A stretch of DNA of 64,000 nucleotides from Clostridia bacterium (GCA_017621885.1 JAGASD010000048.1:7013-71012), one strand, 5' to 3'. Shown: positions 2,937-50,156, numbered from the stretch's first letter. Translations and numbers: made by a program. The notes: generated by a model not told the origin, from the letters alone.

Positions 2937-3012
2937 TGGTCCGAGTGGCGAGACTTGAACTCACGGCCTCTTGACCCCCAGTCAAGCGCGCTACCAACTG
3001 CGCCACACCCGG
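2937..3012 (-). tRNA. tRNA-Pro (anticodon GGG), CCA encoded
   Basis: The reverse complement folds by hand as a 76-nt cloverleaf. Acceptor is CCGGGTG/CACTCGG, D arm GCGC-AGTTGGTA-GCGC, anticodon arm CTTGA-CTGGGGG-TCAAG and T arm GTGAG-TTCAAGT-CTCGC, ending ACCA. Confidence 0.9.
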
Positions 3013-6010: not shown

Positions 6011-7942
6011 ATGATAAAGCCTGAAAACAGAAGCTGTTATGAATTCTTTTGTGACTGTACAAAGGATTTCGGGGTTTATGACGTTGCTGAGAGCTTCGGC
6101 AATCTTGTGAGCCGAAAAAAAATTGTAAGAGATATTGAAGCTATTGCAGGTTATCTTGACAGTAAAAATGTTAAAAAAGGGGACGTTGTTACACTTTTTC
6201 TTCCCAATACAGTGCAGAGCTTTGCGGCGTTTTATGCAATCAACCGAATCGGTGCAATTGCTAATATTGTGCATCCTCTCACTCCGCCCGACGTGCTTGA
6301 AGAAATACTCAAAAATACTCATTCAAAGGCGATTTTTATTCTTGATATAATTATGGAAAAATACGTAAGCACGTTAAGAAAAATGATCAAGCCTGTAATA
6401 ATTTGTTCACCCTCGGATTACGTGTCTCCGGTTAAGCGCCCCGCATTCAAGATTTACGAAAAGGTTAAGGTTAAGGAGAAGATTCCTTCTTCAACAACAG
6501 CCTCATACCACACAATCTGCCACCTTAATTTTCAGGCACCCAAGCTTCAGAGCAACGGTGATGATATTGCGGTTTTCCTTCACGGCGGCGGTACAACCGG
6601 TAAAAGCAAGACTATCAGACTTACAAACAAAAATCTTAACGAGCTTGCTTATAAATTAAGCTTTTTTGATGCCCCTCATGCTCCCGGTGCGGAGTGTTCA
6701 CTTGCTGTGCTTCCGATGTTCCACGCATTCGGACTCGGTGTTGTGATGCATTTCAGTATGTGTGCAGGCTTTACTTGTATACCAATGACAAATTTCTCCG
6801 CTGAAAAGGCAAACAGGCTTATTAAAAAGTATAATGTTACTTATATCGTTGGTGTTCCTGCAATGTTCAAAAAGATGTATGATGCACCTAATTTTGACGG
6901 ACCGCATCTCTCTAAGCTTCGTCTTTTGTGGGCCGGCGGCGATTTTATAAGTGATATTTTTCTTAATGCTTTTAACTCAAAGCTTGAAAAATGGCGCGCG
7001 AAGGGTAAGCTTTACAGAGGCTACGGTCTTACGGAGGTTAGCTCTGTTTGTACGGCAAATATCAAAGGCTCATATAAAGAAAATTCAATCGGCAGACCCC
7101 TTGACGGTATGACTGTTGAAATCTGGGATGACGAAAGAAAAAAATTGCCTCCAAACACAATCGGTGAAATTGTTATAAGCGGTTCCACGGTTATGGCAGG
7201 TTATTATAACAGTGAGGATGACGGCGTCTATATTGATGAAAACGGCATCCGATGGGTTTGCTCGGGTGACCTTGGATATATGGACGAAGACGGCTTTGTC
7301 TTCTTTACGGGCAGAAAGAAAAGAATGATTATTATTTCAGGCTATAACGTTTATCCCAATGATATTGAAAACGAGGTTTTAAAGCTTGATTATATAAATG
7401 AGGCTTGCGCAGTACAGGGTTATATTGATACAAAGCCTGTAATAAAGCTTTTTGTTTCGCTTAATCAGCCTACGGACAACCCTGATGAGGTGCGTAAATG
7501 TATTAAAGAATATTGTGACAGTAAGCTTGAAAGGTTTTCAAGACCCAGTTCTGTTACAATTCTTGATGCGCTTCCGAGAACACGTATGGCTAAAATTGAC
7601 TTTATGAAGCTTACGGATACACCGCCTGCGCCTTCTCCTACAAAAAAGGAAATCCGTGAGGAGCGAAAGGCGAAGCGAGACGTGGAAAAAGCGGCTGAAA
7701 AAGCGGGCAGGGAAGCAGAAAGACAAGAAAAAGAAGAGCGCGAAGCAGCAGAAAAAGCCAATCGCGAGAATCAGAAAAAGACAGAAAAAGAAATCCGCGA
7801 TGAGCGCAAGGCAAAGCGTGATGCTGAAAAAACTGCCAGAAAAACAAATAAGGAAGCGGAAAAACAAGAGAACAGTGAATCTGAAACGGCAGAAGAGACG
7901 GTTCGCGATAATCAGAAAAAATCGGAGGAAAACAATGGCTGA
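6011..7942 (+). CDS. AMP-dependent synthetase/ligase (acyl-CoA synthetase family) with a Lys/Glu-rich repeat tail
   Basis: Motifs GGGTTGKSKT, GYGLTE and GDLGYMDEDGFVFFTGRKKRMII. Start placed at ATG 6011 (AAAGGA upstream) because the track start at 5876 overlaps the PiT gene. Confidence 0.8.
   Translation: MIKPENRSCYEFFCDCTKDFGVYDVAESFGNLVSRKKIVRDIEAIAGYLDSKNVKKGDVVTLFLPNTVQSFAAFYAINRIGAIANIVHPLTPPDVLEEILKNTHSKAIFILDIIMEKYVSTLRKMIKPVIICSPSDYVSPVKRPAFKIYEKVKVKEKIPSSTTASYHTICHLNFQAPKLQSNGDDIAVFLHGGGTTGKSKTIRLTNKNLNELAYKLSFFDAPHAPGAECSLAVLPMFHAFGLGVVMHFSMCAGFTCIPMTNFSAEKANRLIKKYNVTYIVGVPAMFKKMYDAPNFDGPHLSKLRLLWAGGDFISDIFLNAFNSKLEKWRAKGKLYRGYGLTEVSSVCTANIKGSYKENSIGRPLDGMTVEIWDDERKKLPPNTIGEIVISGSTVMAGYYNSEDDGVYIDENGIRWVCSGDLGYMDEDGFVFFTGRKKRMIIISGYNVYPNDIENEVLKLDYINEACAVQGYIDTKPVIKLFVSLNQPTDNPDEVRKCIKEYCDSKLERFSRPSSVTILDALPRTRMAKIDFMKLTDTPPAPSPTKKEIREERKAKRDVEKAAEKAGREAERQEKEEREAAEKANRENQKKTEKEIRDERKAKRDAEKTARKTNKEAEKQENSESETAEETVRDNQKKSEENNG
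7644..7925 (+). repeat. Tandem 141-nt (47-codon) duplication encoding the K/E-rich tail
   Basis: GAAATCCGTGAG at 7649 matches GAAATCCGCGAT at 7790, and CGCGAGAATCAGAAAAAG at 7763 matches CGCGATAATCAGAAAAAA at 7904. The offset is 141 nt in both cases. Confidence 0.85.
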
Positions 7943-9050
7943 GCGGAATAAAAAAAGTTTGAGTTATAAAATTCAAAAGAACCCTTTTATGTTTGTGCTG
8001 TTAATAATCGTTATTGTAGTTGCATTGTTTGGTGTAATTAACCTTGTACCCGCTATAAAAGAGACCTTTAAAAGCTCTGAAAATGAAACCACGACTAAAG
8101 CGGTTGAAGAAACGGTGGGTGCTACTCAAGAGGATAAAACAATACCTGTAAAAAACGTGAAAAATTATCTTAACACAATTACATCTGTTAAAGCAGAAAA
8201 AACCGACAAGGGTGTTGCGGTTACTGTTGAATTCAAAGATAACGCCTCTCTTCTTAAAGAGCATTCGGCAACCAATGTTAACGCTCCCGGTGTTATTCCC
8301 GTTTTTTGCTTTTATCTTAATGACGGCACACAGCTTAATTGCCCGGGTGAGCTAAAGCTTAACGGTGAAAGAAATTCAGCGGTTTATTATCTTAATGATA
8401 TTACCGATTATGCAAATGTTGTTGCTCTTGTGGAAGAGGTTACCGTAACGAATGAAAACGTTCTTGAGAATAAATTCAACATTTGTCTTCAGAGCAAAAC
8501 ACAGACAATACCTACAAAAACCGTTGTGGGTAATTACGGAAAAAGTATTGAAGAATTAAACAATGCCGCTGAATACAAGGCTAATGCTGTCAGCCTTGCA
8601 GACGGTGTTAAAGAGGTACAGATTGTAAAAAACAGCAAATTTGTATGGCTTGACATTTATTTTGAGGATGAATTATCTTACGTTGAATTAAATAATGATT
8701 TTATCACAAACTTTGTTTGCTTTGGCTTCTCTGAAGGCGGCGCAAATTATAAATACGATTTTATCATCAGCAAAAACGACAGCCTGAATATGATTCGTTG
8801 TAAGTTCGATACTTACTCATTGAAGGTCGTTGCAGATGAAATCGGTAACAGCGCCCTCACAGTTGACGGCTTGTTTACGGATTATCCCATTTCTGTATGG
8901 ACTTCTGACTATGATAACGAGATTGATTTGTTCTGCCTTAACTCAGTAACCGATATTAAGGATAACCTTGATAGCGGCGTTACGGAAGAAAGCACGGATA
9001 CAACACAGGATTCCACTGACGTAGCCGAAACAACAGAGGCAGCCGAATAA
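7935..9050 (+). CDS. Membrane-anchored protein of unknown function with an acidic C-terminal tail
   Basis: ATG 7935 overlaps the ligase stop (ATGGCTGA). One N-terminal TM helix (FMFVLLIIVIVVALFGVINLV). The track ORF from 7656 is an alternate-frame read through the repeat region. Confidence 0.6.
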   Translation: MAERNKKSLSYKIQKNPFMFVLLIIVIVVALFGVINLVPAIKETFKSSENETTTKAVEETVGATQEDKTIPVKNVKNYLNTITSVKAEKTDKGVAVTVEFKDNASLLKEHSATNVNAPGVIPVFCFYLNDGTQLNCPGELKLNGERNSAVYYLNDITDYANVVALVEEVTVTNENVLENKFNICLQSKTQTIPTKTVVGNYGKSIEELNNAAEYKANAVSLADGVKEVQIVKNSKFVWLDIYFEDELSYVELNNDFITNFVCFGFSEGGANYKYDFIISKNDSLNMIRCKFDTYSLKVVADEIGNSALTVDGLFTDYPISVWTSDYDNEIDLFCLNSVTDIKDNLDSGVTEESTDTTQDSTDVAETTEAAE

Positions 9051-19932: not shown

Positions 19933-19964
19933 ACGGCGTTGTGTTCGTGGGAACACAACGCCGT
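19933..19964 (-). terminator. Intrinsic terminator of the aspS-gat operon
   Basis: 14-bp stem ACGGCGTTGTGTTC/GAACACAACGCCGT with a T-rich tract on the minus strand. Confidence 0.75.
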
Positions 19965-19970
19965 AAAAAT

Positions 19971-21380
19971 TTACTTATTAAGCTCTGTTTCTAAAAGTGT
20001 TCTGATAACTGCGGGGTCGCCGTTACCTTTAAGCTCACGCATTATAAGACCAAACAAAGCCTGCATAGCCTTTGTTTTACCGCCCTTATAGTCAGCAACA
20101 ATTTTGTCATTATCAGCAATTGTTTTCTTAACTGTGTCAAGAATGAAGCCCTCATCAATTTTCTGATTAAGGTTGTTTTCTTCACAGAAAGCATCAACCT
20201 GGACGTCTTTTTCAAATACAGCTGAAAGAACTTTTTTACCTGCTGCACGGGTGATTTCACCGCTTTCAACAAGTGTAATAATTCTTGCAAGCTTATCTGC
20301 GCTGATGTCAAGTGATGTGATTTCAAGACGCTTCATAATACCCATACACTCAGTAAGAATCCATGAAGCAACTGTTTTTGCGCTGCAGCCTGAAGCAACA
20401 ACCGCATCAAATACTTCGCAAAGCTTACGGTCGGAAGCAAGTACAGCAGCTTCTTTTGCGGCAATACCCATATCCTCGTAGTATTTTGTCTTTTCGTCTG
20501 CTGTAGCAGGCATACTCTTTCTTATTTCCTCAAGCCACGCATCATCAATAACAATTGGCATAACGTTGGGGTCGGGGAAATAGCGATAATCTGCGGCAGT
20601 TTCTTTGTTACGCATGGGGAACGTACGTCTTTTTACGTCGTCCCAACGGCGTGTTTCCTGAACAAGTATTTCAGTATGACGCTCAATAGCGTCAACGTGG
20701 CGAACCTTTTCAAATTCGATTGTGTCTTTAATATCAGAAAGTGAACTCATATTCTTGATTTCTGAACGAACACCGAATTCTGTGGAGCCTTCAGGACGTA
20801 CTGAAATGTTAACGTCGCAACGCATAGCGCCTTCTTCACATTCGGAAATACCAGCAAACTGAAGGCTTGATTTAAGCTTTTTAAGGTAAGCAATAACCTC
20901 ATCTGAAGAACGGAAATCAGGCTTTGTAACAATTTCAATAAGGGGAACGCTTGTGCGGTTGTAGTCAACAAATGATGTATTCGTTGCTTCGTCATGAACA
21001 AGCTTACCTGCGTCTTCTTCAAGGTGAATCTGCTTGATACCGATTTTTCTTCCGTTAATATCAACGCTGCCTTCAACGCAGATGGGGTTAAACCACTGTG
21101 TTGTTTGGTATGATGCGGGAAGGTCGGGGTAGTAGTAGCTCTTTTTATCAAAGGTTGTATACTGATTTATTTTGCAATTAAGCATAAAGCCTGCTTTTAC
21201 CGCAAGTTCAATTGCGTGCTTGTTAGTAACGGGAAGCATACCGGGCATACCGCAGCAAGCAGGACAAACACAGTCATTGGGCTCTTTGGGGCTTGAATGA
21301 CCGCCACATGAACAGAAAAGCTTTGAATCAGTTGAAAGCTCAACGTGAGTTTCAAGACCTATAACAAGTTCGTATTTCAT
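19971..21380 (-). CDS. gatB: Asp/Glu-tRNA amidotransferase subunit B
   Basis: VIGLETHVEL, LEEDAGKL, RCDVNISVR, ETRRWD and DYRYFPDPN, plus a YqeY-like tail. ATG 21380 follows GGAGG. The track start at 21386 is TTG. Confidence 0.9.
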   Translation of the reverse strand: MKYELVIGLETHVELSTDSKLFCSCGGHSSPKEPNDCVCPACCGMPGMLPVTNKHAIELAVKAGFMLNCKINQYTTFDKKSYYYPDLPASYQTTQWFNPICVEGSVDINGRKIGIKQIHLEEDAGKLVHDEATNTSFVDYNRTSVPLIEIVTKPDFRSSDEVIAYLKKLKSSLQFAGISECEEGAMRCDVNISVRPEGSTEFGVRSEIKNMSSLSDIKDTIEFEKVRHVDAIERHTEILVQETRRWDDVKRRTFPMRNKETAADYRYFPDPNVMPIVIDDAWLEEIRKSMPATADEKTKYYEDMGIAAKEAAVLASDRKLCEVFDAVVASGCSAKTVASWILTECMGIMKRLEITSLDISADKLARIITLVESGEITRAAGKKVLSAVFEKDVQVDAFCEENNLNQKIDEGFILDTVKKTIADNDKIVADYKGGKTKAMQALFGLIMRELKGNGDPAVIRTLLETELNK

Positions 21381-21382
21381 TT

Positions 21383-22582
21383 TCAAGCCTCCTTCTTTTC
21401 TACACTGTGAGCAATGCTCAGAAGTGTGCTTTCTTTGAATGAATCCGCAATAAGCTGAACACCGCCGTTAACCATAGCAGGAAGACCTGTAATTGAAGGT
21501 ATAGCTGTGTAAAGACTTTCATCATATACCTTTTTGAAAGCATCAGAAAGGTCGTATTTTTCAAAGCTTAGCTTACTGCAAGGGGGTGTGATGATTGCAT
21601 TATAAGAAGAAAGAACTTCCTTTACTTTATCAATAATCACTCTGCGAAGACGTAAGCTTTTATCGTAGCAAGCTTCGTATTTACCTTTTGCAAGTACGTC
21701 CGAACCATAGATTATGGTTGCCTTTGTAAGGAAGCCGAAGGCTTCTGTTCTGCTCTTTACGTAAAGCTCATCAATGTTTTTGTACTGAGGTGTACGGTAG
21801 CCGTATTTAACACCGTCAAAACGTGAAAGATTGTTGGTTGTTTCTGCAGAAAGAAGAATCTGCCAAGCGGTCTGTGCCGCAAAAACAAGGTCAAGAGAAA
21901 TTCTTTCAACCGTCGCACCTTTTTCTTCAAGTGCTTTGATATATGCATCAATTTTAGCCTTTACTTCGTCAGATGCTTTGTCATAAAGCTCGTTAATAAC
22001 GCAAAGCTTCATTGAAGAAACATCTTCTGTGAGGCTGTATTCATATTTTTCATCGGGAAGGCTTGTGCCGTCTTTGTCATCGTGACCTGCGATAACCGCA
22101 AGAACATCCTTTACTGACTGAGCGTCAGCGGCAGTAACACCAATCTGTTCACCTGAACAAGCACAAGCAATAACACCGTATCTTGAAACAGTGCCGTAGG
22201 TGGGCTTGATAAAGCTTACACCCGAAACGGCTGCTGCACGGCGGGGTGCACCGTTAAGGTCAACACCGATAGCGGCTTTAACCTTGCTTTCAGAAACAAG
22301 TGTTGCGGCTGCATTCTTGATTGCGCCGTTATCTTCTGCGTCTGCAAAATATGTTGTTTCGCCTAAAAGGTCGAGACCGAATTCACCAACGTTTGTTTTA
22401 CCTGAAATTTCGTATCCCTCTTTTTCAAGTCTTTCAACAACCTCTGCGCTGAAAAGGGGAGTGAAGTTTTCGAGCATTTTTGAACCTGCGGTAGCGGGTA
22501 TATCCTTTATAAGTATTGTATCATCAACAGCAATTGTGCCGTTTTTGTTGATTTCGTTAATATAATATTTCACTTGTTTCAC
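21383..22582 (-). CDS. GatA-like amidase-fold subunit with a degenerate catalytic triad
   Basis: Collinear with GatA (IKD..AGSKMLENF, GKTN.GEF, KPTYG.VSRYG, AGHD.KD.TS, LSRFDGVKYGYR). GGSSGGS is replaced by GAIKNAA and GSDTGGSIR by GVDLNGAPR. It sits between gatC and gatB and is about 85 aa shorter than typical GatA. Start is GTG 22582 or GTG 22573. Confidence 0.8.
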   Translation of the reverse strand: MKQVKYYINEINKNGTIAVDDTILIKDIPATAGSKMLENFTPLFSAEVVERLEKEGYEISGKTNVGEFGLDLLGETTYFADAEDNGAIKNAAATLVSESKVKAAIGVDLNGAPRRAAAVSGVSFIKPTYGTVSRYGVIACACSGEQIGVTAADAQSVKDVLAVIAGHDDKDGTSLPDEKYEYSLTEDVSSMKLCVINELYDKASDEVKAKIDAYIKALEEKGATVERISLDLVFAAQTAWQILLSAETTNNLSRFDGVKYGYRTPQYKNIDELYVKSRTEAFGFLTKATIIYGSDVLAKGKYEACYDKSLRLRRVIIDKVKEVLSSYNAIITPPCSKLSFEKYDLSDAFKKVYDESLYTAIPSITGLPAMVNGGVQLIADSFKESTLLSIAHSVEKKEA

Positions 22583-22583
22583 C

Positions 22584-24692
22584 TCACTTTACAAGTCTGG
22601 GTACCTGCCAGCTGTCCTCAGTGCTCTGAGGTGCACCGGCAAGAAGGTCTTTTCTGTCAAATGCCTGATTTCTTGCATCGTCACGAAGAACGTTTGTCAT
22701 AGGCATTACATATACCGCTGCTTCAACGTTTTCTGTGTCAATCTTTGCAAGCTCGGCTTCGCATTTACCCATATCATCAAGAATTGTCTGCATAGCTTTC
22801 TTTTCGTCTGCGGTAAACTGAAGCTGGTTAACCTGTTCAAGATCGTTAAGCTTACTCTCTTTTGTCTGAACCTTTGCTTTTGCAGAGCTCGTTGTAGCGC
22901 TGAATGCTGAACCATCGCCACCCTCGGAGCCGAGAACCTCTGCACCGCCTTTACCTCTGATGCTGACATTAGCTTCGTAAAGCTGAAGCTCTGTAGCCTC
23001 ACCGGGAGCGCTGAGCATCTGATCCTGGGCTGTACCGTCAAGGGGGAATGCAATAACATCTCTGATAGTTTCGGTTTCTGCAAGAAGCATAACAATTCTG
23101 TCAACACCGGGTGCCATACCTGCGTGGGGGGGAGCACCGAACTGGAAAGCGTTGTAAAGCGCACTGAAACGCTTTTTAACCTCATCCTCTGTATAACCTG
23201 CAATTTCAAAGGCTTTTCTCATAATTTCGGGGCTGTGGTTTCTTACAGCACCAGAAGCGAGCTCAATACCGTTACATACAAGGTCGTACTGATAAGCAAG
23301 AATTTCTGTGGGGTCCATAGTCTCAAGTGCTTCAAGACCGCCCTGAGGCATTGAGAAGGGGTTGTGTGTAAAGATAATTTTATCTGTGATTTCATCTCTT
23401 TCGTACATGGGGAAATCAACAACGAAGCAGAATTCAAAGGAATCATTGTTGATTAAACCAAGCTCGTTACCGAGCCATGTGCGGATAACACCAGCGTTTT
23501 TATCAGCAATATCGGAAATAGTGTCGCAAATGAAGAAGATTGTTTCGCCCTCTTTAACGCCTGTAAGCTCAACGATTTCTTTCATCTCTTCTTCGGTCAT
23601 AACCTTTGAAATGGGATCATCTTTAAACTCGTATGTTTCAGCATTAAGAAGAGTGATATGAGCAAGACCGGCCATTTTTGCCTGTTTTGTAGCAAAGTTG
23701 AGAGATTTGTCAAAGAACCATCTTTCGTTTTTGCAGGGGGCAACAATACCGCGAACCTGTTTGTTCATAAAGGGCTTGAACTTAACTCTCTTGAACATAT
23801 CTGTAAGGTCACAGATAACAAGGGGGTTACGAAGGTCGGGCTTGTCTGAGCCGTATTTTGCCATAGCCTCTCTGTAAGGGATACATCTGAAGGGTGTTTC
23901 AGTAACCTTTTTACCGGTAAAGGTACGGAAAATGTCGCTTACAACATCTTCGCAGACTTTAAGAACCTCTTCCTGAGTAGAAAAAGCCATTTCAAAGTCA
24001 AGCTGATAGAATTCACCGGGTGAACGGTCAGCACGGGCATCTTCATCACGGAAGCAGGGGGCAATCTGATAATATTTATCAAAGCCTGAAACCATAAGAA
24101 GCTGTTTGAATTGCTGAGGTGCCTGAGGAAGAGCATAGAATTTACCGGGATGCTTACGGGAAGGAACGAGGAAATCTCGTGCGCCTTCAGGTGAAGAAGC
24201 GGTAAGAATCGGTGTCTGAATGTCAAGGAAGCCTCTTTCCTCCATAAGGCGTCTCATATGACCGATAACCTTTGAACGAAGGATAATATTATTATGCAAA
24301 GCAGGATTTCTTAAATCAAGGAATCTGTGTTTGAGTCTTAAATTTTCATTAGTGTCTTTTGCACCGATTTCAAAGGGGAGATCTCTGCTGCACACACCAA
24401 GAACAGTGAGGCTGTCTGCAATAAGCTCTACAAGACCTGTATCGATTTTGGGGTTAACTGTGCTTTCATCACGCTTTGAAACTGTGCCATGAACAGAAAT
24501 AACTGTTTCCTTGCTGATGCCTTTAAGAAGATTTTCATCGTGAACAACAACCTGAGTTACGCCTGTTTCATCACGCAAATCTACAAAAAGTACACCGCCA
24601 TGGTCACGAACAACATCAACCCAGCCGGCGAGTTCAACCTCAATACCGATGTGCATTTCTCTGATTTCGTTACAACGGTGAGTTCTGTACAT
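22584..24692 (-). CDS. aspS: Aspartate--tRNA ligase fused to a C-terminal GatC domain
   Basis: Residues 1 to about 585 form a bacterial-type AspRS with a GAD insertion (FRDEDARADR, GAPPHAGMAPGVDR). A G/S/A/K-rich linker lies at about 22851-22945. The last 88 or so residues (22587-22850) look like GatC (IDTENVEAAVYVMPMTNVLRDD...LLAGAPQSTEDSWQVPRLVK). Confidence 0.85.
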   Translation of the reverse strand: MYRTHRCNEIREMHIGIEVELAGWVDVVRDHGGVLFVDLRDETGVTQVVVHDENLLKGISKETVISVHGTVSKRDESTVNPKIDTGLVELIADSLTVLGVCSRDLPFEIGAKDTNENLRLKHRFLDLRNPALHNNIILRSKVIGHMRRLMEERGFLDIQTPILTASSPEGARDFLVPSRKHPGKFYALPQAPQQFKQLLMVSGFDKYYQIAPCFRDEDARADRSPGEFYQLDFEMAFSTQEEVLKVCEDVVSDIFRTFTGKKVTETPFRCIPYREAMAKYGSDKPDLRNPLVICDLTDMFKRVKFKPFMNKQVRGIVAPCKNERWFFDKSLNFATKQAKMAGLAHITLLNAETYEFKDDPISKVMTEEEMKEIVELTGVKEGETIFFICDTISDIADKNAGVIRTWLGNELGLINNDSFEFCFVVDFPMYERDEITDKIIFTHNPFSMPQGGLEALETMDPTEILAYQYDLVCNGIELASGAVRNHSPEIMRKAFEIAGYTEDEVKKRFSALYNAFQFGAPPHAGMAPGVDRIVMLLAETETIRDVIAFPLDGTAQDQMLSAPGEATELQLYEANVSIRGKGGAEVLGSEGGDGSAFSATTSSAKAKVQTKESKLNDLEQVNQLQFTADEKKAMQTILDDMGKCEAELAKIDTENVEAAVYVMPMTNVLRDDARNQAFDRKDLLAGAPQSTEDSWQVPRLVK

Positions 24693-24747: not shown

Positions 24748-24965
24748 GCTTTAAAAAATAAAAAATCCCGGGAATTATGCAAGATAATTCCCGGGACGAG
24801 TTTTATAACCCGCGGTGCCACCCGTATTGATACAAATGTACCCACTCTTTTATTCAAAAATAAGCATAACCTGAAGTGTTCCCGAACTTACTACTCATCT
24901 GAAGCGCGCTTTCAGCCGATGACGCACTATCTCTGACAGACTTTCTACAAAAGCCGAGTCTTCGG
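24748..24965 (-). promoter_or_regulatory. T-box leader (tRNA-sensing riboswitch) with terminator/antiterminator
   Basis: Minus strand carries AGAGA and GGCTGAAAG Stem I elements, GGGAACAC in the candidate specifier region (24876-24883), the T-box sequence GGGTGGCACCGCG (24811-24823), and the terminator TCCCGGGAATTAT-cttgc-ATAATTCCCGGGA (24766-24796) plus a T-run. Confidence 0.8.
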
Positions 24966-24970
24966 TGAAG

Positions 24971-24999
24971 ATTTTATCAAAAATGTTTTCGGTTGTCAA
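24971..24999 (-). promoter_or_regulatory. Sigma-A-like promoter of the T-box/aspS operon
   Basis: Minus strand TTGACA, 17-nt spacer, TAAAAT. Confidence 0.6.
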
Positions 25000-27218: not shown

Positions 27219-27418
27219 TGAAAAAACCTCTTTTGTAAAGGAATATAATGCTAATGATTTTAACATTAAGCGATTAAAAAAACAAGAGGGTGTTTTTGTA
27301 TTTTAAGTTTTTTGTGTTGTTGACGGGGTATATGTAATGTGTTATATTGGTATTGGAAGATAAATAAATGAAAAAATCATAATTAAAATGATTTATGTTT
27401 GTTTTTGGAGGCTTAATT

Positions 27419-28831
27419 ATGGTTAGCTTTGATATTTTGCAAACAACTCTGAATGTAAGTATGTTTGAGATTGCTTTAGGATTTTTCAGATTTATTGTTG
27501 TTATTCTTGCTATTGTAATGCCGATGGTTTTGTTGGTGTTAATGGCAAAATCAATAAATAAACGCAAAAAGAAAAGTGTGTTTATTTGTGTTATAAGTCT
27601 GGTGTTGTCGATTGTCTTTGCATATATAGTTTTTACTGATATAAAATTACCTGCAAGAGTTGACATCGAATCAATAAAAACATATCACGAAACATTGTTG
27701 TCAACGGAAAGTGGTTATTATGAATTTGATACGGGGTATATTGATGGCTCAATGCGTGTATCTGATTTAAATGATGATTATACACCCGTATTAGATTACG
27801 CTACAGATTACAAAAAATACAAGTCGCACGAAATAGACGAATACACAAAATGCTATATTTCACCTGTTATTTGTTATAAAGATGATAGGTTATCTCATCT
27901 CTGGGAGCCTTTGGGTTCATACGGTACAATTGTAATTGAAAGCAAAGATAAACTGATAGAAATTAAGTATAATTACATAAATAGTGGAGTTGCTGATATC
28001 CTTTGGCCAATTTCTAATCCTCAAACATTCTACAGACCTGAAATTGACTTTGGAGATTTAGTGACAACTTTAGGTTTTGAAAACAAATTAAGTACTACTA
28101 AAATGCGTTACACGAATGAAATCAGCGATTTCGGTGTTGATTTCAAAGTTGAAGATGGTGCGTTGTATTTAAAAGGGGAGAATATTGATTACTTTTTTGA
28201 AGATGCATCTTCTCTAAATCCCAACCAATGGAATAAGCTGACCTTTAAAGAAAAAATTATTCATATTTCCGCTTGTGGCGGAACGCTCCTTTATCTCACT
28301 GATGAGGGTGATGTTTACGGTTTAGGAAATACTGAGGGAATTTTTTCTGAATACGACCCCAACAATCCCATACAGTATATTACAACTCCTGAAATTTTAT
28401 TTGAGGATTGCAAATACGTTTCGGTTGGTTCAAAATTTGCAATTTTCCTCAAGAATGATAACACACTTTGGTTTTTAGGTGAAAGCAAAAACGGACAAAG
28501 CACAAAGATTGCTGATAGAATAGGGGAGCCTTTGAAAATTGCGGATAACGTTTATTTTGCCGAAGCATTCGGTTATACCTGCGGTTGGATTGATGAGCAT
28601 CAACAATTGCACCTTTGCGGTGATAATTCTTACGGTCAGATCGGTAACGGTAAAAAGGGGAACGGTTACCCCACAACATACGAATCAATTGTTACAACAC
28701 CTTATATTGCGTTGCGCAATTGCGCGAACTTTACTTCGGCAGACGGTGAAAGCGTTATTGCATTAAGAACAGACGGAACAAAATATGCCTGGGGCGGCGA
28801 ATACGGACCTGCACCTAAAAATATCGGATAA
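27419..28831 (+). CDS. Membrane-anchored protein with C-terminal RCC1-like beta-propeller repeats
   Basis: Two N-terminal TM segments. Repeats include DVYGLGNTEG, LWFLGESKNGQ, LHLCGDNSYGQIGNG and KYAWGGEYG. ATG 27419 follows GGAGG. Confidence 0.65.
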   Translation: MVSFDILQTTLNVSMFEIALGFFRFIVVILAIVMPMVLLVLMAKSINKRKKKSVFICVISLVLSIVFAYIVFTDIKLPARVDIESIKTYHETLLSTESGYYEFDTGYIDGSMRVSDLNDDYTPVLDYATDYKKYKSHEIDEYTKCYISPVICYKDDRLSHLWEPLGSYGTIVIESKDKLIEIKYNYINSGVADILWPISNPQTFYRPEIDFGDLVTTLGFENKLSTTKMRYTNEISDFGVDFKVEDGALYLKGENIDYFFEDASSLNPNQWNKLTFKEKIIHISACGGTLLYLTDEGDVYGLGNTEGIFSEYDPNNPIQYITTPEILFEDCKYVSVGSKFAIFLKNDNTLWFLGESKNGQSTKIADRIGEPLKIADNVYFAEAFGYTCGWIDEHQQLHLCGDNSYGQIGNGKKGNGYPTTYESIVTTPYIALRNCANFTSADGESVIALRTDGTKYAWGGEYGPAPKNIG

Positions 28832-30007: not shown

Positions 30008-32353
30008 TTAAACGCGAACAATTTCGCTGTTGAGGTCTGCGAGACCGTCTGTAAGTGCTGAAGCAACACCCTGACCAAGAGAAATGAGCTCGTGGTAGTG
30101 GTTTGCGGGGTCACCCATTGTGAAATCGTTATCGGGAACAACGTAACCGATAGCATCGTTCATAAGACCGAAGCACTGAATATCTTCGCCAAATATAGAG
30201 CATGCAGCCTGGCTGGGATAGTTCTTACCGGTAATTGAATAAGGTCCGTTAAGAGAAATACCGTTGGGAGCAACAAGGTCCTGACAAATTTCACCGGGAA
30301 GGAAAACTGTCTTGAAGCAGTCACCGATTTCCATATAACCGATTTCGGTGATTGTTGCATAAGAGCCATCTTCATTAGCTATAACAACGTAGTTAGCCAT
30401 GTTGAGCTTACCAACAGCTTCAATAAGTGCGCTTGAAACGGGGATTTCAACCTGCTTGAGGTAAAGGTTAAGATAAGGTGCAACCTCAACCTCTTCAACA
30501 GCTTCCCAATCCTCGTACCATGTTGTGTAGGCGGGGTTGATGGGCATCATATAATCTTCGTAGATTTTACCGTCCGAAGATTTTACATATGTTGTGTAAA
30601 CTGACTTTTTGCTTGCGCCTTCCATGGGGATTTCAATAAGGGCTGCGCCGTTATATGCAATTTCATACATATCGGTTTCATCATTTACGCCTGCGGTAGC
30701 CTTTGTTTCGTCAACGAAAATTTCAACGGGATTACCGTCAGTATCGGTTACTGCGCAAACACCCTGCAAGGGTAATGCTGTAACTACGTATAATTCGGGG
30801 TCATATTCGTATTCAAATACAACTCTGTCATCACATTTAACGCTTATAGTGTTCAATGTGTCGTCGCCATCTACAGAGAAGGGGGCGTTAATGTTGTGGA
30901 TTGTAATATCCATACCTTCAATTGTAAGGATGGTCTTTACGTAATCAACGAACGAGTAATCGTAATCGTTAAATTCATTTTTGAGACTGCCGTCTTCATT
31001 GTAGATTGAAACTAATTCTGTGTTTTCTTCAACCTCTTTCCGGTTTGAAAGAACGTCATCAGCAAGGATTTCTTCTTCTGTAAGGTTCATTGAAAGAAGG
31101 ATTCTTGCAAGCTCGTAACCGAATCTCTGAGACTCTTCAACACGCTGATGTGTTTCAACGTTGTCACCTGTTGCGGAACGAGCCATGTAGATACCTGCAA
31201 TAGCACCCTGGAAGAACATAAAGTTGTAACCGTATTTTTCAAGGAACTGACCGCAGTAGAATACATAGTCACCGCTGATTTCTCTACCTGAGTTGCTTTC
31301 TGTGGGAAGACCTGCAACGTCGGGGTGAGCTGCAATGTTGAGAATCATAGTTTTCTTTGCTGAGTCATCATCAGGAGTGAACACGAATCTGGTGATATCT
31401 GTCATAGCAACCTGTGTTTCACCTGTGAATTCTTTGTAGCCATCTGCGTTTTCTTCGTAAATCATTTCACCTGAAGAAGGACGGTTTTTGTTCTGGAAAT
31501 ATTCCTGACCGATATCCTTTGTTGAATATGTAAGAACACCGGGCTGCATATCGTAGTATGCATCAACAAGTGCATCTGCAACTGTTTCTTTAAGGAATGC
31601 CATATATTCGGGGTTTGTACCCTGCTGAAGCTCTTCGTCAGCCTGTGTACCGCTGATGATACCGTTAGAAACGATCTTAGCAATGTTCTTTGTCCAGAGA
31701 CCTTCTGTATCAATACAGCTGTGTGTATGAGTAGAAGCAACGTTAATAGCAACGATGTTGTTTGCTACTGCAAAGTCAGCGAGAATAGCACGGATATCCT
31801 TAATATCAGCATTTGTTATACCGATACAGTCGATTGTTGCAAAAAGAACTGTGCCTTTATCTGTGCCGTCGTTGATAGCGATACATCTTACCTTCATATC
31901 GTCTCTGCCGAGGCCGGGGATCTGGGCGATACCTTCAACAACGTTTGTAAAGCCGTTTTCGGGAGCAATGTAACCACCGATATAGTATTCGCCGTTGTCG
32001 TAGTCTTCGGGGATAAGGCTTGCATTAGCGTAGCCGATGTTCCATCTGGCATCTTCTTCAGCTTCGCTTACAAACTCTTTGCCGATACCCTCATAATAGT
32101 TTTCATCGGCGAGTTCCAGGGCACTCTCTCTGTCCATGAATCCCGGTCCGTCGCCAAACAGACCTGCGAACAAGTCGAGAATGAACCTTAAAACGGTATC
32201 AATGATATCTGAGAAAATGATACCGATGGGATTTTCGCTGTCAATGATTGGGTAAGCACTTGAAGCACTTACTGTTACTGCGCCGAATGACGAGAATGCC
32301 AAAGTGAGGGCGAGAACAACAGCGATGAGTTTTGTTAATCTGCTCTTTTTCAT
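30008..32353 (-). CDS. Secreted neutral/alkaline-ceramidase-like hydrolase (paralogue 1, long form)
   Basis: Signal peptide (MKKSRLTKLIAVVLALTLAFSSFGAVTVSA). Motifs VASTHTHSCIDTEGLW, IAAHPDVAGL and NDAIGYVVPDNDFTMGDPANHYHELISLG. Family call rests on motif resemblance only. Confidence 0.5.
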   Translation of the reverse strand: MKKSRLTKLIAVVLALTLAFSSFGAVTVSASSAYPIIDSENPIGIIFSDIIDTVLRFILDLFAGLFGDGPGFMDRESALELADENYYEGIGKEFVSEAEEDARWNIGYANASLIPEDYDNGEYYIGGYIAPENGFTNVVEGIAQIPGLGRDDMKVRCIAINDGTDKGTVLFATIDCIGITNADIKDIRAILADFAVANNIVAINVASTHTHSCIDTEGLWTKNIAKIVSNGIISGTQADEELQQGTNPEYMAFLKETVADALVDAYYDMQPGVLTYSTKDIGQEYFQNKNRPSSGEMIYEENADGYKEFTGETQVAMTDITRFVFTPDDDSAKKTMILNIAAHPDVAGLPTESNSGREISGDYVFYCGQFLEKYGYNFMFFQGAIAGIYMARSATGDNVETHQRVEESQRFGYELARILLSMNLTEEEILADDVLSNRKEVEENTELVSIYNEDGSLKNEFNDYDYSFVDYVKTILTIEGMDITIHNINAPFSVDGDDTLNTISVKCDDRVVFEYEYDPELYVVTALPLQGVCAVTDTDGNPVEIFVDETKATAGVNDETDMYEIAYNGAALIEIPMEGASKKSVYTTYVKSSDGKIYEDYMMPINPAYTTWYEDWEAVEEVEVAPYLNLYLKQVEIPVSSALIEAVGKLNMANYVVIANEDGSYATITEIGYMEIGDCFKTVFLPGEICQDLVAPNGISLNGPYSITGKNYPSQAACSIFGEDIQCFGLMNDAIGYVVPDNDFTMGDPANHYHELISLGQGVASALTDGLADLNSEIVRV

Positions 32354-32600
32354 GTTGTTTTTGTCTCCTTTTACGTTGCCTTTTTCAAGACAACATTATT
32401 TGATACCATATTTTACTATATATATAATAAAAAATCAACTATCATTATAGCTAAATTCTTGCTCTATAGTTTAGTGTTTTGCACAAAAATCAATATCAAA
32501 TTCAATATGTTTGATTTATGAAATAATATGTATTGACAACGTCGCCTTTTTTGTGTAAAATGTTATGGAAATAATATGGTATCAAGGGGGATACTTCGTG

Positions 32601-33731
32601 ATGAAAAACAATAATTCTAACAGCAAAGCAACTGCACTTTTGGCATTGGGTCTTGCTACATGCGTTGTTATAGGGCTTGTATCAAGTACTGCCATGAAGC
32701 TTGCTTCTGCAACTGTTTTTATGAAAAACAGCAAACAGCCAACTAAAAATCCCGTTGTTGAATTGATAGAGGAAGCTATTGATACAATCATTCCCGAAAC
32801 ACCTTCGGTAACACCGCCTCCTGCAGATACAGGAAGCTCTTCTTCAGGTTCTTCAAGCTCTTCGGGCTCTTCAAGCTCTTCTGATTCCTCAAGCTCCTCA
32901 AGTTCATCAGATTCTTCATCTGAAACTACCACTGAGGCTCCTACAGAGGCTGAAACAAAAGCTCCCGAAACCGAAAAAGAAACCGAAGCTCCCAAGCAAG
33001 AGGAAGAAACAAAGGCTCCTGAAACCGAAGCTCCCGAAAAGGAAGAAGACACTACAGACCCCGTTGTTATTGCAAAACAGAATCAGGCTGTTGTTAAATT
33101 GTACAAGGATGTTCTTACTCGTGCAAAGCTTCCCGGCAAAGAGCCTTCCTTCAAAAAGGTTACATACAGATCTCTTGACAGAGCTTTCTGGGGTAGCTGG
33201 AGATATGAGGGCGTTGAAGAAAATAATGCAAGCTATTTTGTAGCAGAAGAAATCGCAAAGGCTAATCCCTTAGTTGTTCCCAAGGCAACAAAAACAACAG
33301 CTCTTGCTATAAATAACACTGCTTCTGCTTGCTTGCTTGATGTATCTAAGCTTGATGTTATTACAAAAGCCGTTAAATCAGCTTCAAAAGAAGTTCTTAA
33401 AGACGGTACTGTTAAGCTTGTAATCGTTCTTAACGATGAAGAAAATCCCACTCCCATCAAACCTACAGATAAAACTTCGGCAAGCTTCACAAGCGCAATG
33501 TTCCCGGTTGTTACAGCAGCTCAGGTAATGAAAGCGGTTGACGATAATAAAGTTGAATCTGTAAATCTTGTTTATTCTGATTGTTCGGTTGAGCTTGTTT
33601 ACAGACCTTCTAACGGTCAGATTGTTTCAATGAAGCAGGTTGTTAAATATGAGGCAGCTGTTGAACAAGGCTTTATAACAGCGAAAGGTACGGTTACAGA
33701 GGTTTCCGATTATACAAACTTCGTATATTGA
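32601..33731 (+). CDS. Membrane-anchored protein with a poly-Ser / TEAP-rich low-complexity linker
   Basis: ATG 32601 follows AAGGGGGA. One TM helix, then SSSSGSSSSSGSSSSSDSSSSSSSSDSSSE and (E)TEAP/K repeats, then a globular C-terminal domain. Confidence 0.6.
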   Translation: MKNNNSNSKATALLALGLATCVVIGLVSSTAMKLASATVFMKNSKQPTKNPVVELIEEAIDTIIPETPSVTPPPADTGSSSSGSSSSSGSSSSSDSSSSSSSSDSSSETTTEAPTEAETKAPETEKETEAPKQEEETKAPETEAPEKEEDTTDPVVIAKQNQAVVKLYKDVLTRAKLPGKEPSFKKVTYRSLDRAFWGSWRYEGVEENNASYFVAEEIAKANPLVVPKATKTTALAINNTASACLLDVSKLDVITKAVKSASKEVLKDGTVKLVIVLNDEENPTPIKPTDKTSASFTSAMFPVVTAAQVMKAVDDNKVESVNLVYSDCSVELVYRPSNGQIVSMKQVVKYEAAVEQGFITAKGTVTEVSDYTNFVY

Positions 33732-46913: not shown

Positions 46914-48356
46914 ATGGAGGATTATATTATGGGTGTTAATGAATTTGCTGCAAAAGCGGTTAGAAAAATCGGTAAAATGAGCTCAAAAAAGCTTATCAGA
47001 AAAGGTGTTAAAGCATCACCTCTTCCCAGACCCGAGCCTACAGTTATTAAGGGAGATAAATATTGTTGCGGTTACGCCGTAAGAGAAGTTATGCCCGATG
47101 ATATTCACGCGAAAAAATATTGGATTGCCGGCCACGGTATGGGCCACGTAATTGAAAAAGTTCACGACCCTGTTACAGTAAGTGCAATGTGGATTGGCGC
47201 AGATGATAACGGTGGATTTATACATATAAGCGCGGATATTATCGGTCTTACAAACTACGAGCTTAACATTGTCCGCGCACGTTTGAGTGATTTTATTGAA
47301 AAAAGCAAATGCGCAGGTGTGTTTGTTTCTTGTACTCATCAGCACGCAGGCTTTGATACTGTCGGTTATTGGGGTCAGCTTATGAAGCTTCAGAGCGGTA
47401 AGGACCCTGAATATATGGAAAAATTGCTTAGCTCACTTGAAGCTGTTGCACGTGAAGCATACGAAAACAGAAAGCCCGGCAAGCTTTATATCGGCACAGT
47501 AAGTGTTCCCGAAGCACAGTTCTGCAAACGCGAGCCTAATGCATTGCACGATGTTCTCACAAGAACAAAATTTGTTCCCGATGACGGTTCAACAGAAACC
47601 TGGTTCCTTAATTACGAGGCACATCCCAACACCTTGGGTGGCGACAACCGTGAGTGCGGTGCAGATTATCCTTATTGGCTCAGAAAATATATCAACGATG
47701 AAAAGACAGTTAACGTTCTTTTCGGTGTAGGTGCTATCGGTGCAGTTGACCCGGGTGATTTCTGCGATGATAAAAAAGAAAGAACACGTCTTGAAGGTCT
47801 TACCCTTGCAAAAGCATCTCTCGGTATCGACAATGATAAAGAAATGCCTGTTGAGATTACAGTTCTTCAGCATAAATACTACTCACCCGTTGATAACGGA
47901 CTTCTTGCTCTTATGGCAACAATCAATGCTTGTTCTTCACAGCGTTATCCTTGTGATAAGGGTGATTTAGGTCTTGCACTTCTTACGGAAATGGCTTACA
48001 TAAAGCTTGGTACACAGCAGATTTTGCTTCTGCCGGGTGAACCTTTCCCCGAGGTTATTTACGGTGGCGCCGCAGATGCTGATAAGTCCGCAACAGGTAA
48101 AGGTACTGAAATTAACCCAACTCCCATTATTGATATAGTCGGAGATAAGGATTTGCTCGTTTACTGCGTTACCAACGATATGACAGGTTACTGCGTAACT
48201 CCGAATGATTACATTCTTCATAAAACCCAGCCTTACATTGAGCAGGGTACAGATGTTTTCGACAGGAGACATTATCACGAAACAAACTCTTTAGGCTACC
48301 TCACAAACGAAACGATTGCCGAAAATGTTGCCGATATAATGAAAAGAGTGAAATAA
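46914..48356 (+). CDS. Cytoplasmic neutral-ceramidase-like hydrolase (paralogue 2)
   Basis: VSCTHQHAGFDTVGYWG, NYEAHPNTLGG and RRHYHETNSLGY align with the motifs of paralogues 1 and 3. No signal peptide. Confidence 0.5.
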   Translation: MEDYIMGVNEFAAKAVRKIGKMSSKKLIRKGVKASPLPRPEPTVIKGDKYCCGYAVREVMPDDIHAKKYWIAGHGMGHVIEKVHDPVTVSAMWIGADDNGGFIHISADIIGLTNYELNIVRARLSDFIEKSKCAGVFVSCTHQHAGFDTVGYWGQLMKLQSGKDPEYMEKLLSSLEAVAREAYENRKPGKLYIGTVSVPEAQFCKREPNALHDVLTRTKFVPDDGSTETWFLNYEAHPNTLGGDNRECGADYPYWLRKYINDEKTVNVLFGVGAIGAVDPGDFCDDKKERTRLEGLTLAKASLGIDNDKEMPVEITVLQHKYYSPVDNGLLALMATINACSSQRYPCDKGDLGLALLTEMAYIKLGTQQILLLPGEPFPEVIYGGAADADKSATGKGTEINPTPIIDIVGDKDLLVYCVTNDMTGYCVTPNDYILHKTQPYIEQGTDVFDRRHYHETNSLGYLTNETIAENVADIMKRVK

Positions 48357-48473: not shown

Positions 48474-50156
48474 TTGAATAAGCAAAAACAGAGGGAAATC
48501 CTTGATAAAACTATAAACGGTGCACTGAGAGCTTTTGCCGCTTCCGTTAAATCGGGTAATGAGGTCCTGACGTCGGATTCTTTTGTCACCGATAATTTCT
48601 ATATCGGAACGCCTGCATTTTTAAATGAATGTATCAGTAATTCCAAATGGAGTCTTGGCTTTGCGGATGTTGTTTTAACCCCTGTCGATTATAAAAAGCG
48701 CGAGTATTATATGGGTGGCTATATGGTTCCCGATAACAAGTTTAAAAACCTTGTTGAAGATGTTGTTGATAATATGATGGGACGTGCTGTTGCTCTTGAT
48801 GACGGTTCCGACAGAGGTGTATCTCTCTTTTGCACGATTGACTGTATCGGTATTGCGAACAGTGATATAAAAGAAATCAGAAAGCTTTTTAAAGAAAAGG
48901 CCGAAAGGATTTATCCCGATAAGAAAATTAACTCGATAAATATTTTTTCAACTCATGCTCACAGTTGTGTCGATACACAAGGCTTGTGGACTGAGTTTCC
49001 GTCAAAGCTTCTGAGAAATCTCAGAAGAAAATATACGGGCAAAGGTGTTCTTGAAAAGGGTGCGGATGAGCAGTATATGCGTTTTTTGTATGAGCGTGTA
49101 AGCGAGGCTCTTATGAATGCATTGGGCAATATGGTACCCGGTGAAATGAGCTTTGCCCGAAAGGATATTACCGAGGATTATTTTGTCAATAAAAACAGAC
49201 CCTCTGCAACGGGTATTGTTACGGATATCACAAGGCTTACCTTTACACCCGATGATATGAATAACACACCTACTATAATAGTTAATCTTCCTGCACATCC
49301 CGATGTTGCCGGATTGGCTGTTAAGGGTGAAAAGGGTTCAGGTCGTCGCCTTTCAGGTGAGTATGTGTATTATATGGGCGAAGTGATAAATAAAGCAGGA
49401 TATAACTTTATGTTTTTTAATGGTGCAATTTGTGCTATTTATATGTCCTGCGATAAGTCTAACGACGGCTTAAAGCTTAACCACAGATACGAAATGTCTG
49501 TACGTTTCGGTAGAGAAATCGGGAAAATTACCCTTTCTCTTACCAAAACACTTGATGAAATTAAAAAAGATAACCTGCTCTATGATGAGCAGGAAATAAA
49601 AAAAGAGGCCGAGCTTGCAAAAAGAAACGGCGGTAAATATACCCTTTGGTGTGAGAATTGGGAGCCGGTGCAGGAAATTAAAATTGATCCGATTCTCAAT
49701 ATCAGATTAAAACAGATTAAAATACCGGTAAAAAATAATCTCATGGTGGCGGTTGGCAAGCTGAAACTTGCCAACTTTAAGGTGATTTGTGAAGAAAACC
49801 AATACTATGTTTGGTCCGAGATAGGTTATATAGAGCTTGGCAAACAGATTAAAATCGCAATGGTCCCCGGTGAGTTTTGCTGTGATTTGTTAGTGGGCGG
49901 TGCATCCCTTTATGCTGAAGGTTCCGTCACCCATACTGATTTCGGACTTCCTGCACTTGGTGAAATATTCGGCGAAGACACAATTGTTTTCGGCCTTGCA
50001 AATGATGCAGTGGGTTATATTGTTCCGGATAACGACTATACAATGGGTGATCCGCAGCATCATTATCACGAGCTAATTTCATTGGGGTGTGAAACCGGTT
50101 CTTCTGTAATGAAAGGCTTTGTTGAATTATCCGGATTAATTAACGAAAATCGCTGA
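48474..50156 (+). CDS. Cytoplasmic neutral-ceramidase-like hydrolase (paralogue 3)
   Basis: FSTHAHSCVDTQGLW, NLPAHPDVAGL and NDAVGYIVPDNDYTMGDPQHHYHELISLG, closest to paralogue 1. The only available start is TTG 48474. It has no obvious SD and follows a weak hairpin plus T-run (48444-48473), so start confidence is low. Confidence 0.5.
   Translation: MNKQKQREILDKTINGALRAFAASVKSGNEVLTSDSFVTDNFYIGTPAFLNECISNSKWSLGFADVVLTPVDYKKREYYMGGYMVPDNKFKNLVEDVVDNMMGRAVALDDGSDRGVSLFCTIDCIGIANSDIKEIRKLFKEKAERIYPDKKINSINIFSTHAHSCVDTQGLWTEFPSKLLRNLRRKYTGKGVLEKGADEQYMRFLYERVSEALMNALGNMVPGEMSFARKDITEDYFVNKNRPSATGIVTDITRLTFTPDDMNNTPTIIVNLPAHPDVAGLAVKGEKGSGRRLSGEYVYYMGEVINKAGYNFMFFNGAICAIYMSCDKSNDGLKLNHRYEMSVRFGREIGKITLSLTKTLDEIKKDNLLYDEQEIKKEAELAKRNGGKYTLWCENWEPVQEIKIDPILNIRLKQIKIPVKNNLMVAVGKLKLANFKVICEENQYYVWSEIGYIELGKQIKIAMVPGEFCCDLLVGGASLYAEGSVTHTDFGLPALGEIFGEDTIVFGLANDAVGYIVPDNDYTMGDPQHHYHELISLGCETGSSVMKGFVELSGLINENR

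Follow-up and report, generated by a model that had tools for sequence, protein, structure and literature searches.

Is the aspartyl-tRNA synthetase (AspRS) of a Clostridia bacterium truly joined in one polypeptide to GatC, the small subunit of the GatCAB amidotransferase, and, if so, what would such a chain do together with the gatA-like and gatB genes that follow it? The question is raised by aspS::gatC, a 702-codon open reading frame (ORF) in a 64,000-nucleotide stretch of DNA (GCA_017621885.1, JAGASD010000048.1:7013-71012; hereafter the window, with positions counted from its first letter), which an initial annotation had read as a possibly covalently tethered transamidosome. The fusion is confirmed here as real, not an artefact or chance, and the gene that follows it encodes a GatA homologue from which the catalytic and glutamine-binding residues are gone, which is the less expected and more unusual feature of the locus.

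A conserved aspS::gatC fusion

The ORF begins at an ATG preceded by a GGAGG ribosome-binding site and consists of the following parts (lengths in amino acids, aa).

22584..24692, minus strand: aspS::gatC, an AspRS-linker-GatC polypeptide of 702 aa with no internal stop
24399..24638, minus strand: anticodon-binding OB fold, residues 19-98 (Pfam tRNA_anti-codon, PF01336)
23040..24350, minus strand: class II D/K/N core, residues 115-551 (Pfam tRNA-synt_2, PF00152; 372 bits)
23505..23765, minus strand: GAD insertion within the class II core, residues 310-396 (PF02938; 27.8 bits against a cut-off of 23.4, weak but above threshold)
22851..22946, minus strand: linker GAEVLGSEGGDGSAFSATTSSAKAKVQTKESK, rich in Gly, Ser, Ala and Lys, 32 aa, residues 583-614
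22587..22850, minus strand: GatC domain, residues about 615-702 (Pfam PF02686 match at 626-695)

In the 702-aa protein all three AspRS Pfam domains (PF00152, PF01336 and PF02938) exceed their gathering scores, and the protein as a whole scores as AspRS against two NCBIfam models (NF001750, 738.5 against a cut-off of 443; TIGR00459, 605.6 against 373.85). The C-terminal part matches the GatC family PF02686 at 37.1 bits (gathering score 23) over profile positions 1-64 of 66, and the gatC model TIGR00135 gives 50.7 on the isolated C-terminal 98 aa (cut-off 47.1; profile positions 3-92 of 93) and 44.3 inside the full protein. The complete bacterial AspRS with OB fold, class II core and GAD, the linker of about 32 aa read through without a stop, and the GatC end, all proposed initially, are borne out, and the profile search returned the synthetase, GAD and PF02686 domains that had been expected.

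An assembly or sequencing artefact, in which a stop or frameshift between aspS and gatC was missed, would also yield such an ORF. A protein search recovered more than 120 clusters with 86-100% identity to the fusion, all 701-703 aa long and carrying PF02686 together with PF00152, from NCBI, ENA, JGI and Logan assemblies labelled Clostridia, Ruminococcaceae or Oscillospiraceae bacterium. Species-representative genomes scanned with the gatA-like protein as query gave 18 species, most labelled Acutalibacteraceae and all known from assemblies of uncultured organisms; the record titles that name a source refer to yak, sheep and water deer (ruminant hindgut samples). The AspRS-GatC junction lies in a single frame in all 18 loci, the full-length ORF being present in 12 and interrupted by a contig end in the other six. 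The next gene is gatA-like (391-401 aa), followed by gatB except in one locus that ends before it, and the identity of the fusion to the window protein ranges from 92% down to 63%. Together with a continuous frame in more than 240 independently assembled protein clusters (NCBI, ENA, JGI and Logan), and with synonymous divergence that is saturated across the aspS-gatC junction while the protein is conserved, these loci effectively refute the artefact already; no evidence in its favour was found, and its probability is negligible.

Ratios of nonsynonymous to synonymous substitution rates (dN/dS) were calculated pairwise and taken where synonymous sites were near-saturated but not saturated. Purifying selection acts on the AspRS core (0.04-0.14), the GatC domain (0.10-0.19), the GatA homologue (GatA'; 0.11-0.17) and GatB (0.06-0.09), whereas the linker is relaxed relative to its flanking domains (0.2-0.8) and varies in sequence and length between lineages.

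The architecture itself is already catalogued. NCBIfam holds a curated model, NF009460 (PRK12820), named 'bifunctional aspartyl-tRNA synthetase/aspartyl/glutamyl-tRNA amidotransferase subunit C', which has the same domain order, AspRS and then GatC; residues 7-678 of the window protein align to its profile positions 26-698 of 723, but the score of 444.8 bits does not reach the equivalog cut-off of 1379. A second clostridial group, traced from fragments matched with the GatC domain as query, comprises more than 120 further clusters of 686-706 aa, including that of Clostridiaceae bacterium NSJ-31 (P0274), whose UniRef label is "Multifunctional fusion protein"; at 664 bits, the NSJ-31-type fusion does not reach the NF009460 cut-off either. 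Both therefore belong to lineages other than the model's own, and by sequence comparison there are at least three fused AspRS-GatC lineages. Loci of the NSJ-31 type (L019 and L021) share the layout of the window, with a T-box leader bearing an AAC specifier, aspS::gatC (690-696 aa), gatA and gatB; their fusion is 39% identical to the window protein, and the GatA beside it is full length (480-483 aa) with IKDN, GGSSGG and GSDTGGSIRQP kept. The AspRS core of the window protein departs from common bacterial motifs in residues 190-235 (LPQAPQ where LPQSPQ is usual) and carries a one-residue insertion (ADRSPGEFYQLD, against ADRQPEFTQVD in P0274), and these departures suggest a divergent AspRS subfamily dedicated to this operon.

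A GatC-domain search of a representative library of 1.84 billion proteins was largely uninformative for counting fused lineages, surfacing only contig-end fragments (P0238, P0149 and P0122) and stand-alone GatCs; at 50% clustering, ordinary AspRS representatives apparently mask the fused ones. The closest stand-alone GatC (P0125, 93 aa) is 53% identical to the GatC domain of the window protein. In a sister lineage found on three independent metagenome contigs (L025-L027), aspS and a 93-aa gatC are separate genes: aspS ends at ...EANIRIRD and its stop codon, and a 45-nt spacer with a ribosome-binding site leads to the ATG of gatC. The split lies at the position where fused proteins continue ...EANVSIRGKGG..., and this lineage offers a natural, unfused counterpart for comparison with the fusion. 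The system can therefore do without the covalent link, and the fusion is, on this comparison of sequences, evolutionarily labile.

A literature search found no description of a natural AspRS-GatC fusion or of a catalytically dead GatA, and no solved structure covering a fused AspRS-GatC chain was found. The initial annotation knew of no characterised example, and none was found in the literature; the architecture is nevertheless not a new one, being recorded in NF009460 and UniRef, and the query for its spread places AspRS-GatC in two clostridial groups of more than 120 clusters each. As far as found, the fusion is common in Clostridia, catalogued and apparently uncharacterised.

The T-box leader and the operon

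Transcription signals surround the genes as follows.

24971..24999, minus strand: sigma-70-type promoter, TTGACA, 17-nt spacer and TG-extended TAAAAT (11 of 12 positions match)
24789..24978, minus strand: T-box leader with Stem I, Stem III, T-box sequence and antiterminator (Rfam RF00230, 48.4 bits, E=1.2e-9)
24873..24963, minus strand: T-box Stem I with AG bulge (AGAGA) and distal loop GGCUGAAAG (RNAalifold consensus)
24878..24880, minus strand: specifier codon AAC (Asn), with a conserved purine A next to it at 24877
24809..24823, minus strand: T-box sequence GGGUGGCACCGCGGG, nearly invariant across related loci
24765..24797, minus strand: leader terminator hairpin and U-tract, a 14-pair stem and then TTTTTATTTT; conserved, and competing with the antiterminator
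19933..19964, minus strand: operon terminator 3' of gatB, a 14-pair stem with 8 G-C pairs and then TTCTTTATTT

The transcription unit thus runs on the minus strand from 24999 to 19933 in the order promoter, T-box(Asn), aspS::gatC, gatA', gatB, terminator. TTGACA and a -10-like element are kept in most of the related leaders aligned, and the leader is conserved in 13 related loci. At gathering thresholds Rfam did not report a T-box in the 400 nt upstream of aspS::gatC; the leader was found in an E-value scan, at 48.4 bits against the RF00230 gathering score of 93. It has the elements of a functional T-box, namely AGAGA, GGCUGAAAG, AAC followed by A (a purine after the specifier is a usual T-box signature), GGGUGGCACCGCGGG and the 14-bp terminator with its U-tract, and its Stem I covaries. 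Across 14 sequences, 96% of the Stem I pair cells are paired and 11 of 23 pairs show compensatory changes, while none of 500 shuffles was as good and slid partners pair at 25-44%. AACAC is invariant in all 14 leaders and lies in an internal loop that is directly followed by the 3' strand of a 4-bp basal helix, which covaries in its turn (GAAG/CUUC to GGAG/CUCC in L023). The UGGC of the T-box sequence would pair with the 3' GCCA end of the tRNA. Because the specifier is an invariant Asn codon, the operon belongs in all probability to the tRNA-Asn transamidation pathway.

Stem I is atypical (24873-24978, minus strand): the transcript apparently starts at the 4-bp basal helix, a K-turn is absent, and the N-AAC-A specifier loop directly adjoins that helix, with the GAGUAGUA motif in a second, higher internal loop. 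The low Rfam score is probably due to this structure. Leaders of the NSJ-31 type have the usual GAA-G-AAC-A loop. Rfam's own Stem I alignment, which pairs CGAA with UUCG, was rejected as unsupported in relatives, and the RNAalifold structure with covariation was used instead. A two-codon GAA/AAC specifier was considered for GGGAACAC of the window and discarded; the base preceding AAC is G, C or U in relatives, so that relatives do not share an overlapping GAA codon. Between the T-box terminator and the aspS start, the most divergent species has some 330 additional nt, which include another hairpin, AAATCAAGAAATAAATCATATTCTTGATTT (L016:545-875). The only tRNA gene in the window is a tRNA-Pro (anticodon GGG; 2937-3012, minus strand), and there is no tRNA-Asn there for a check of the discriminator base against UGGC.

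A GatA homologue without its catalytic triad

Two genes follow the fusion on the same strand.

21383..22573, minus strand: gatA', a truncated, triad-less GatA homologue of about 396 aa (the mechanical ORF reaches 22582)
19971..21380, minus strand: gatB, full length with catalytic motifs intact, GatB_N and GatB_Yqey (the mechanical ORF starts at TTG 21386)

The TGA of aspS::gatC (22584-22586) had been described as abutting the GTG start of the gatA-like gene, and that gene as overlapping gatB. The first GTG of the gatA-like ORF does lie one base on, at 22582, but the true start is likely the GTG at 22573, where the N-terminus reads MKYY as in homologues and GAGGTGA provides a ribosome-binding site upstream. 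The gene stops at 21383-21385 and would overlap gatB by 4 nt if gatB started at TTG 21386; the ATG at 21380, giving MKYE as in homologues, is the more likely start.

GatA' has the amidase fold (PF01425, 174.6 against a gathering score of 27) and matches solved GatA chains in phmmer at E about 1e-60. It does not reach the gatA equivalog TIGR00132 (267.3 against a cut-off of 481.1), the match beginning at profile position 60, and about 60 N-terminal residues of GatA are absent; the homologue in L025 scores 253 and the canonical GatA beside an NSJ-31-type fusion 632.7. An AlphaFold2 model from a 15-sequence alignment (mean pLDDT 65, and low confidence in the loops of the former active site) served for fold assignment only, and its top Foldseek matches are GatA chains of GatCAB structures (TMq 0.74-0.78).

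GatA depends on a Ser-cisSer-Lys triad (nucleophile Ser178 in S. aureus; K52, S130 and S154 in yeast; PMC2330236, PMC4027206) and holds glutamine through residues that are E330, R334 and D418 in yeast (PMC4027206). Motifs were compared in alignments to T. maritima and A. aeolicus GatA for the window protein and all related sequences examined, and GatA' differs from GatA as follows.

Catalytic Lys of IKDN: Asp (AVDD) in every sequence examined
NPWD...GGSSGG block, which holds the cis-Ser: shorter, with its residues replaced
Nucleophile Ser of DTGGS: mostly Ala, with Ser, Thr, Tyr or Phe in the others, depending on lineage
EVKRR: FLTKA
(M/S)D-x-x-T: ES-x-x-T

The last two changes remove the Glu, Arg and Asp that bind glutamine. 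The amidase family motifs KPTYGTVSRYG, SRFDGVKYG and AGxDxKDGTS are kept. A Lys in LIKD was considered as a substitute for the catalytic one and rejected, being absent in L013. The gatA-like gene of the initial annotation can accordingly not be taken at face value, since the triad and the glutamine-binding residues are gone, and to judge from these positions GatA' has very probably lost glutaminase activity. The loss is independent of the fusion, because the sister lineage, with its aspS and gatC still split, already has a triad-less GatA' of 397 aa (L025:1-3054, also L026 and L027).

Triad-less GatA' is widespread: the most divergent member as query retrieved a further 120 clusters of 392-397 aa, and hundreds of Oscillospirales gut genomes carry the protein, one example lying in the same type of operon on a 372-kb contig. 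At NCBI, under Ruminococcus sp. or Ruminococcaceae, these clusters go by "amidase family protein" or "hypothetical protein", and the fusion by no more than "aspartate--tRNA ligase", so that metabolic reconstructions searching for GatA or GatC could overlook both proteins.

GatB scores well above its models (NF004012, 559.1 against 338; TIGR00133, 488.7 against 314.8), and its conserved motifs align with GatB chains 3AL0_B and 3H0L_B. In Ruminococcus-type operons an AlaX-like gene of 380 aa (tRNA-synt_2c, tRNA_SAD and DHHA1) lies directly 3' of gatB (L023:12666-13808 and L024:7298-8440) and may be a trans-editing factor linked to the same operon.

Elsewhere in the window, five ORFs of 781, 480, 560, 388 and 464 aa have no Pfam match at E<=1e-5 (30008-32353, minus strand; 46914-48356, 48474-50156, 32565-33731 and 7656-9050, plus strand, respectively). 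A sixth, of 478 aa (27395-28831, plus strand), has a hydrophobic N-terminus and RCC1-like repeats, with a Pfam WD40_RLD match of 67 bits, well below the cut-off of 150.

Proposed function and known systems

The AspRS part of the fusion is suggested to be non-discriminating (ND), charging both tRNA-Asp and tRNA-Asn, because of the Asn T-box control, the linkage to gatC, gatA and gatB, an RDHGG motif in the anticodon domain as in ND-type AspRS (E. coli has RDLGS), and the closest matches of that domain. Its best structure matches are named Asp/Asn ligases, two of the Mycobacterium type and one other, all with RDHGGV. The His/non-Lys signature of ND enzymes reportedly stems from work on P. aeruginosa.

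A physical tether is a reasonable inference because AspRS and GatC are fused directly before the gatA-like and gatB genes and behind an Asn T-box, and a tethered AspRS-amidotransferase complex is probable on this gene content. GatC surrounds the GatA-GatB interface, and GatA depends on it for folding and for binding GatB (PMC2330236); from this belt role and the covalent link to AspRS we infer a transamidosome. When Asn-tRNA-Asn is low, uncharged tRNA-Asn would pair with the AAC specifier and the UGGC bulge, stabilise the antiterminator and allow the operon to be read through. The AspRS part, of bacterial type and with ND-like anticodon-domain features, would then put Asp on tRNA-Asn. [quoted passage not shown] GatB would phosphorylate and amidate Asp-tRNA-Asn, yielding Asn-tRNA-Asn, and GatA', presumably incapable of glutamine hydrolysis, would be kept as a structural partner for GatB and GatC. 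The nitrogen would most likely come from free ammonia or ammonium, which is plentiful in the ruminant gut, the habitat of these organisms; ammonia is millimolar in the rumen and hindgut.

A precedent for such a donor exists in yeast GatFAB, which transamidates with 20 mM NH4Cl when the glutaminase step is bypassed, and in which truncation of the GatF portion supporting the GatA glutaminase site increased the activity with NH4Cl (PMC4027206). Free ammonia has about an even chance of being the donor for Asp-tRNA-Asn amidation here. For the locus as a whole we lean towards a tethered Asn-transamidosome with a scaffold-only GatA that would use free ammonia. Somewhat more speculatively, to the point that we hesitate to favour it, sequence comparisons may point to a natural tRNA-dependent amidotransferase free of glutamine in a large clade of gut Oscillospirales: the dead GatA would serve as a scaffold, or possibly as an ammonium-capturing funnel given that its former active site holds an invariant acidic VDD, GatB would use environmental ammonia, and the enzyme, mostly tied to an ND AspRS through the fused GatC, would form a constitutive Asn-transamidosome switched on by uncharged tRNA-Asn.

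Several observations weigh against the tethered, ammonia-fed transamidosome. The T-box lies below the Rfam gathering score (48 vs 93 bits) and has an atypical Stem I, and sequence is an unreliable guide to whether an AspRS is non-discriminating or discriminating. The sister lineage runs unfused aspS and gatC beside the same dead GatA', so that the tether is non-essential and may add little. The GatA' model is of low confidence (pLDDT 65) and therefore permits no statement on an ammonia tunnel. A canonical gatCAB, another glutaminase, AsnRS or AsnA/AsnB may be encoded elsewhere in the carrier genomes; of the other ORFs in the 64-kb window, the 20 largest include no asnS, glnS, or second aspS, gatC or gatA.

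The tether might be a near-neutral accident, in which the aspS stop was lost and the short spacer read through with no benefit for channelling or stoichiometry, the complex forming as in unfused relatives. Such an origin would fit the split of L025-L027 exactly where fused proteins read on, the existence of at least three fused lineages (about 39% identity between them, and neither tested one reaching the NF009460 cut-off), and a poorly constrained linker of variable length with dN/dS up to 0.8. The fusion is however kept without reversion in 18 of 18 species loci, down to 63% identity, and in hundreds of clusters, and its repeated occurrence, in several lineages, would be in keeping with some advantage under selection; we consider a neutral fusion rather unlikely, and it bears on the benefit only, leaving the pathway assignment unaffected. 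A less likely alternative still concerns the nitrogen: GatA' would be only a scaffold, and ammonia would come from glutamine through a canonical GatA or other glutaminase encoded elsewhere, or a separate canonical GatCAB would do most of the work. C. acetobutylicum is said to have duplicated gatCAB sets and three aspS genes, which would be in keeping with this, but a glutaminase-like gene is absent from the operon and was not found among the window's 20 largest ORFs that were scanned or in the related loci. Moreover, GatA' fills the GatA position, is under strong purifying selection and is co-inherited with gatC and gatB, so that a second GatA would have no obvious docking site.

That GatA' is still an amidase or glutaminase with non-canonical catalytic residues is more improbable by far, even though the fold and many family motifs are kept and the Lys motif has given way to an invariant acidic VDD. 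None of the three triad positions or of the three glutamine-binding positions survives, there is no conservation where the nucleophile once stood (A, S, T, Y or F), and the Lys of LIKD is missing in L013; to our knowledge no amidase-signature enzyme works without the Ser-cisSer-Lys triad.

Transamidation with a scaffold-only GatA, as favoured here, would matter beyond this locus. The tRNA-dependent amidotransferases are portrayed as pairs of a glutaminase and a kinase connected by an ammonia tunnel, and organisms that make Asn-tRNA-Asn by GatCAB are thereby tied to glutamine (reviewed in PMC2330236). If the proposal is true, a conserved GatCAB without glutaminase would show that free ammonia can sustain the pathway in vivo, the ammonia route would tie it to an ammonia-rich gut habitat, and the dead GatA' would add a clear pseudoenzyme case to the amidase-signature family. 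The fused and the closely related unfused versions amount to a natural experiment on whether a synthetase-amidotransferase tether improves the channelling of mischarged tRNA.

Among known systems, the operon recalls one of C. acetobutylicum, where Saad et al. are said to have described, in 2012, an aspS-gatCAB transamidation operon controlled by a tRNA-Asn T-box. By that account the two are alike in combining AspRS and amidotransferase genes behind an Asn T-box leader for tRNA-dependent Asn synthesis, and the window is set apart from it, as reportedly described, by having aspS and gatC as one ORF, a GatA that is catalytically lost, and a truncated Stem I with no K-turn and its specifier loop on a 4-bp basal helix. 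The same players, ND-AspRS, GatC, GatA, GatB and tRNA-Asn, make up the non-covalent Asn-transamidosomes (T. thermophilus 3KFU, P. aeruginosa 4WJ3 and H. pylori; PMC3367201), presumably with the shared purpose of handing Asp-tRNA-Asn directly to the amidotransferase; those assemblies are held by tRNA and protein contacts and have a GatA that is an active glutaminase, whereas the window system has a peptide linker and a GatA' predicted to be dead. Compared with canonical GatCAB and its ammonia tunnel (S. aureus 2DF4, A. aeolicus 3H0L and T. maritima 3AL0; PMC2330236), the GatB and GatC parts are recognisable, but GatA' lacks the triad, the Gln-binding residues and about 60 N-terminal aa, which predicts that the glutaminase half-reaction is missing. 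Yeast mitochondrial GatFAB is likewise a trimeric amidotransferase able to amidate with free ammonium when the glutaminase step is bypassed (PMC4027206), although there NH4Cl use at 20 mM is an in vitro bypass with the glutaminase intact, and in the window the loss would be natural and permanent. AtzE-AtzG (PDB 6C62), a 'vestigial' descendant of GatCAB, resembles the locus in having abandoned one catalytic half while keeping the GatA-like/GatC-like pairing, and is its mirror image: the amidase AtzE is active and GatB is gone, whereas in the window the amidase is, as predicted, dead and GatB is kept.

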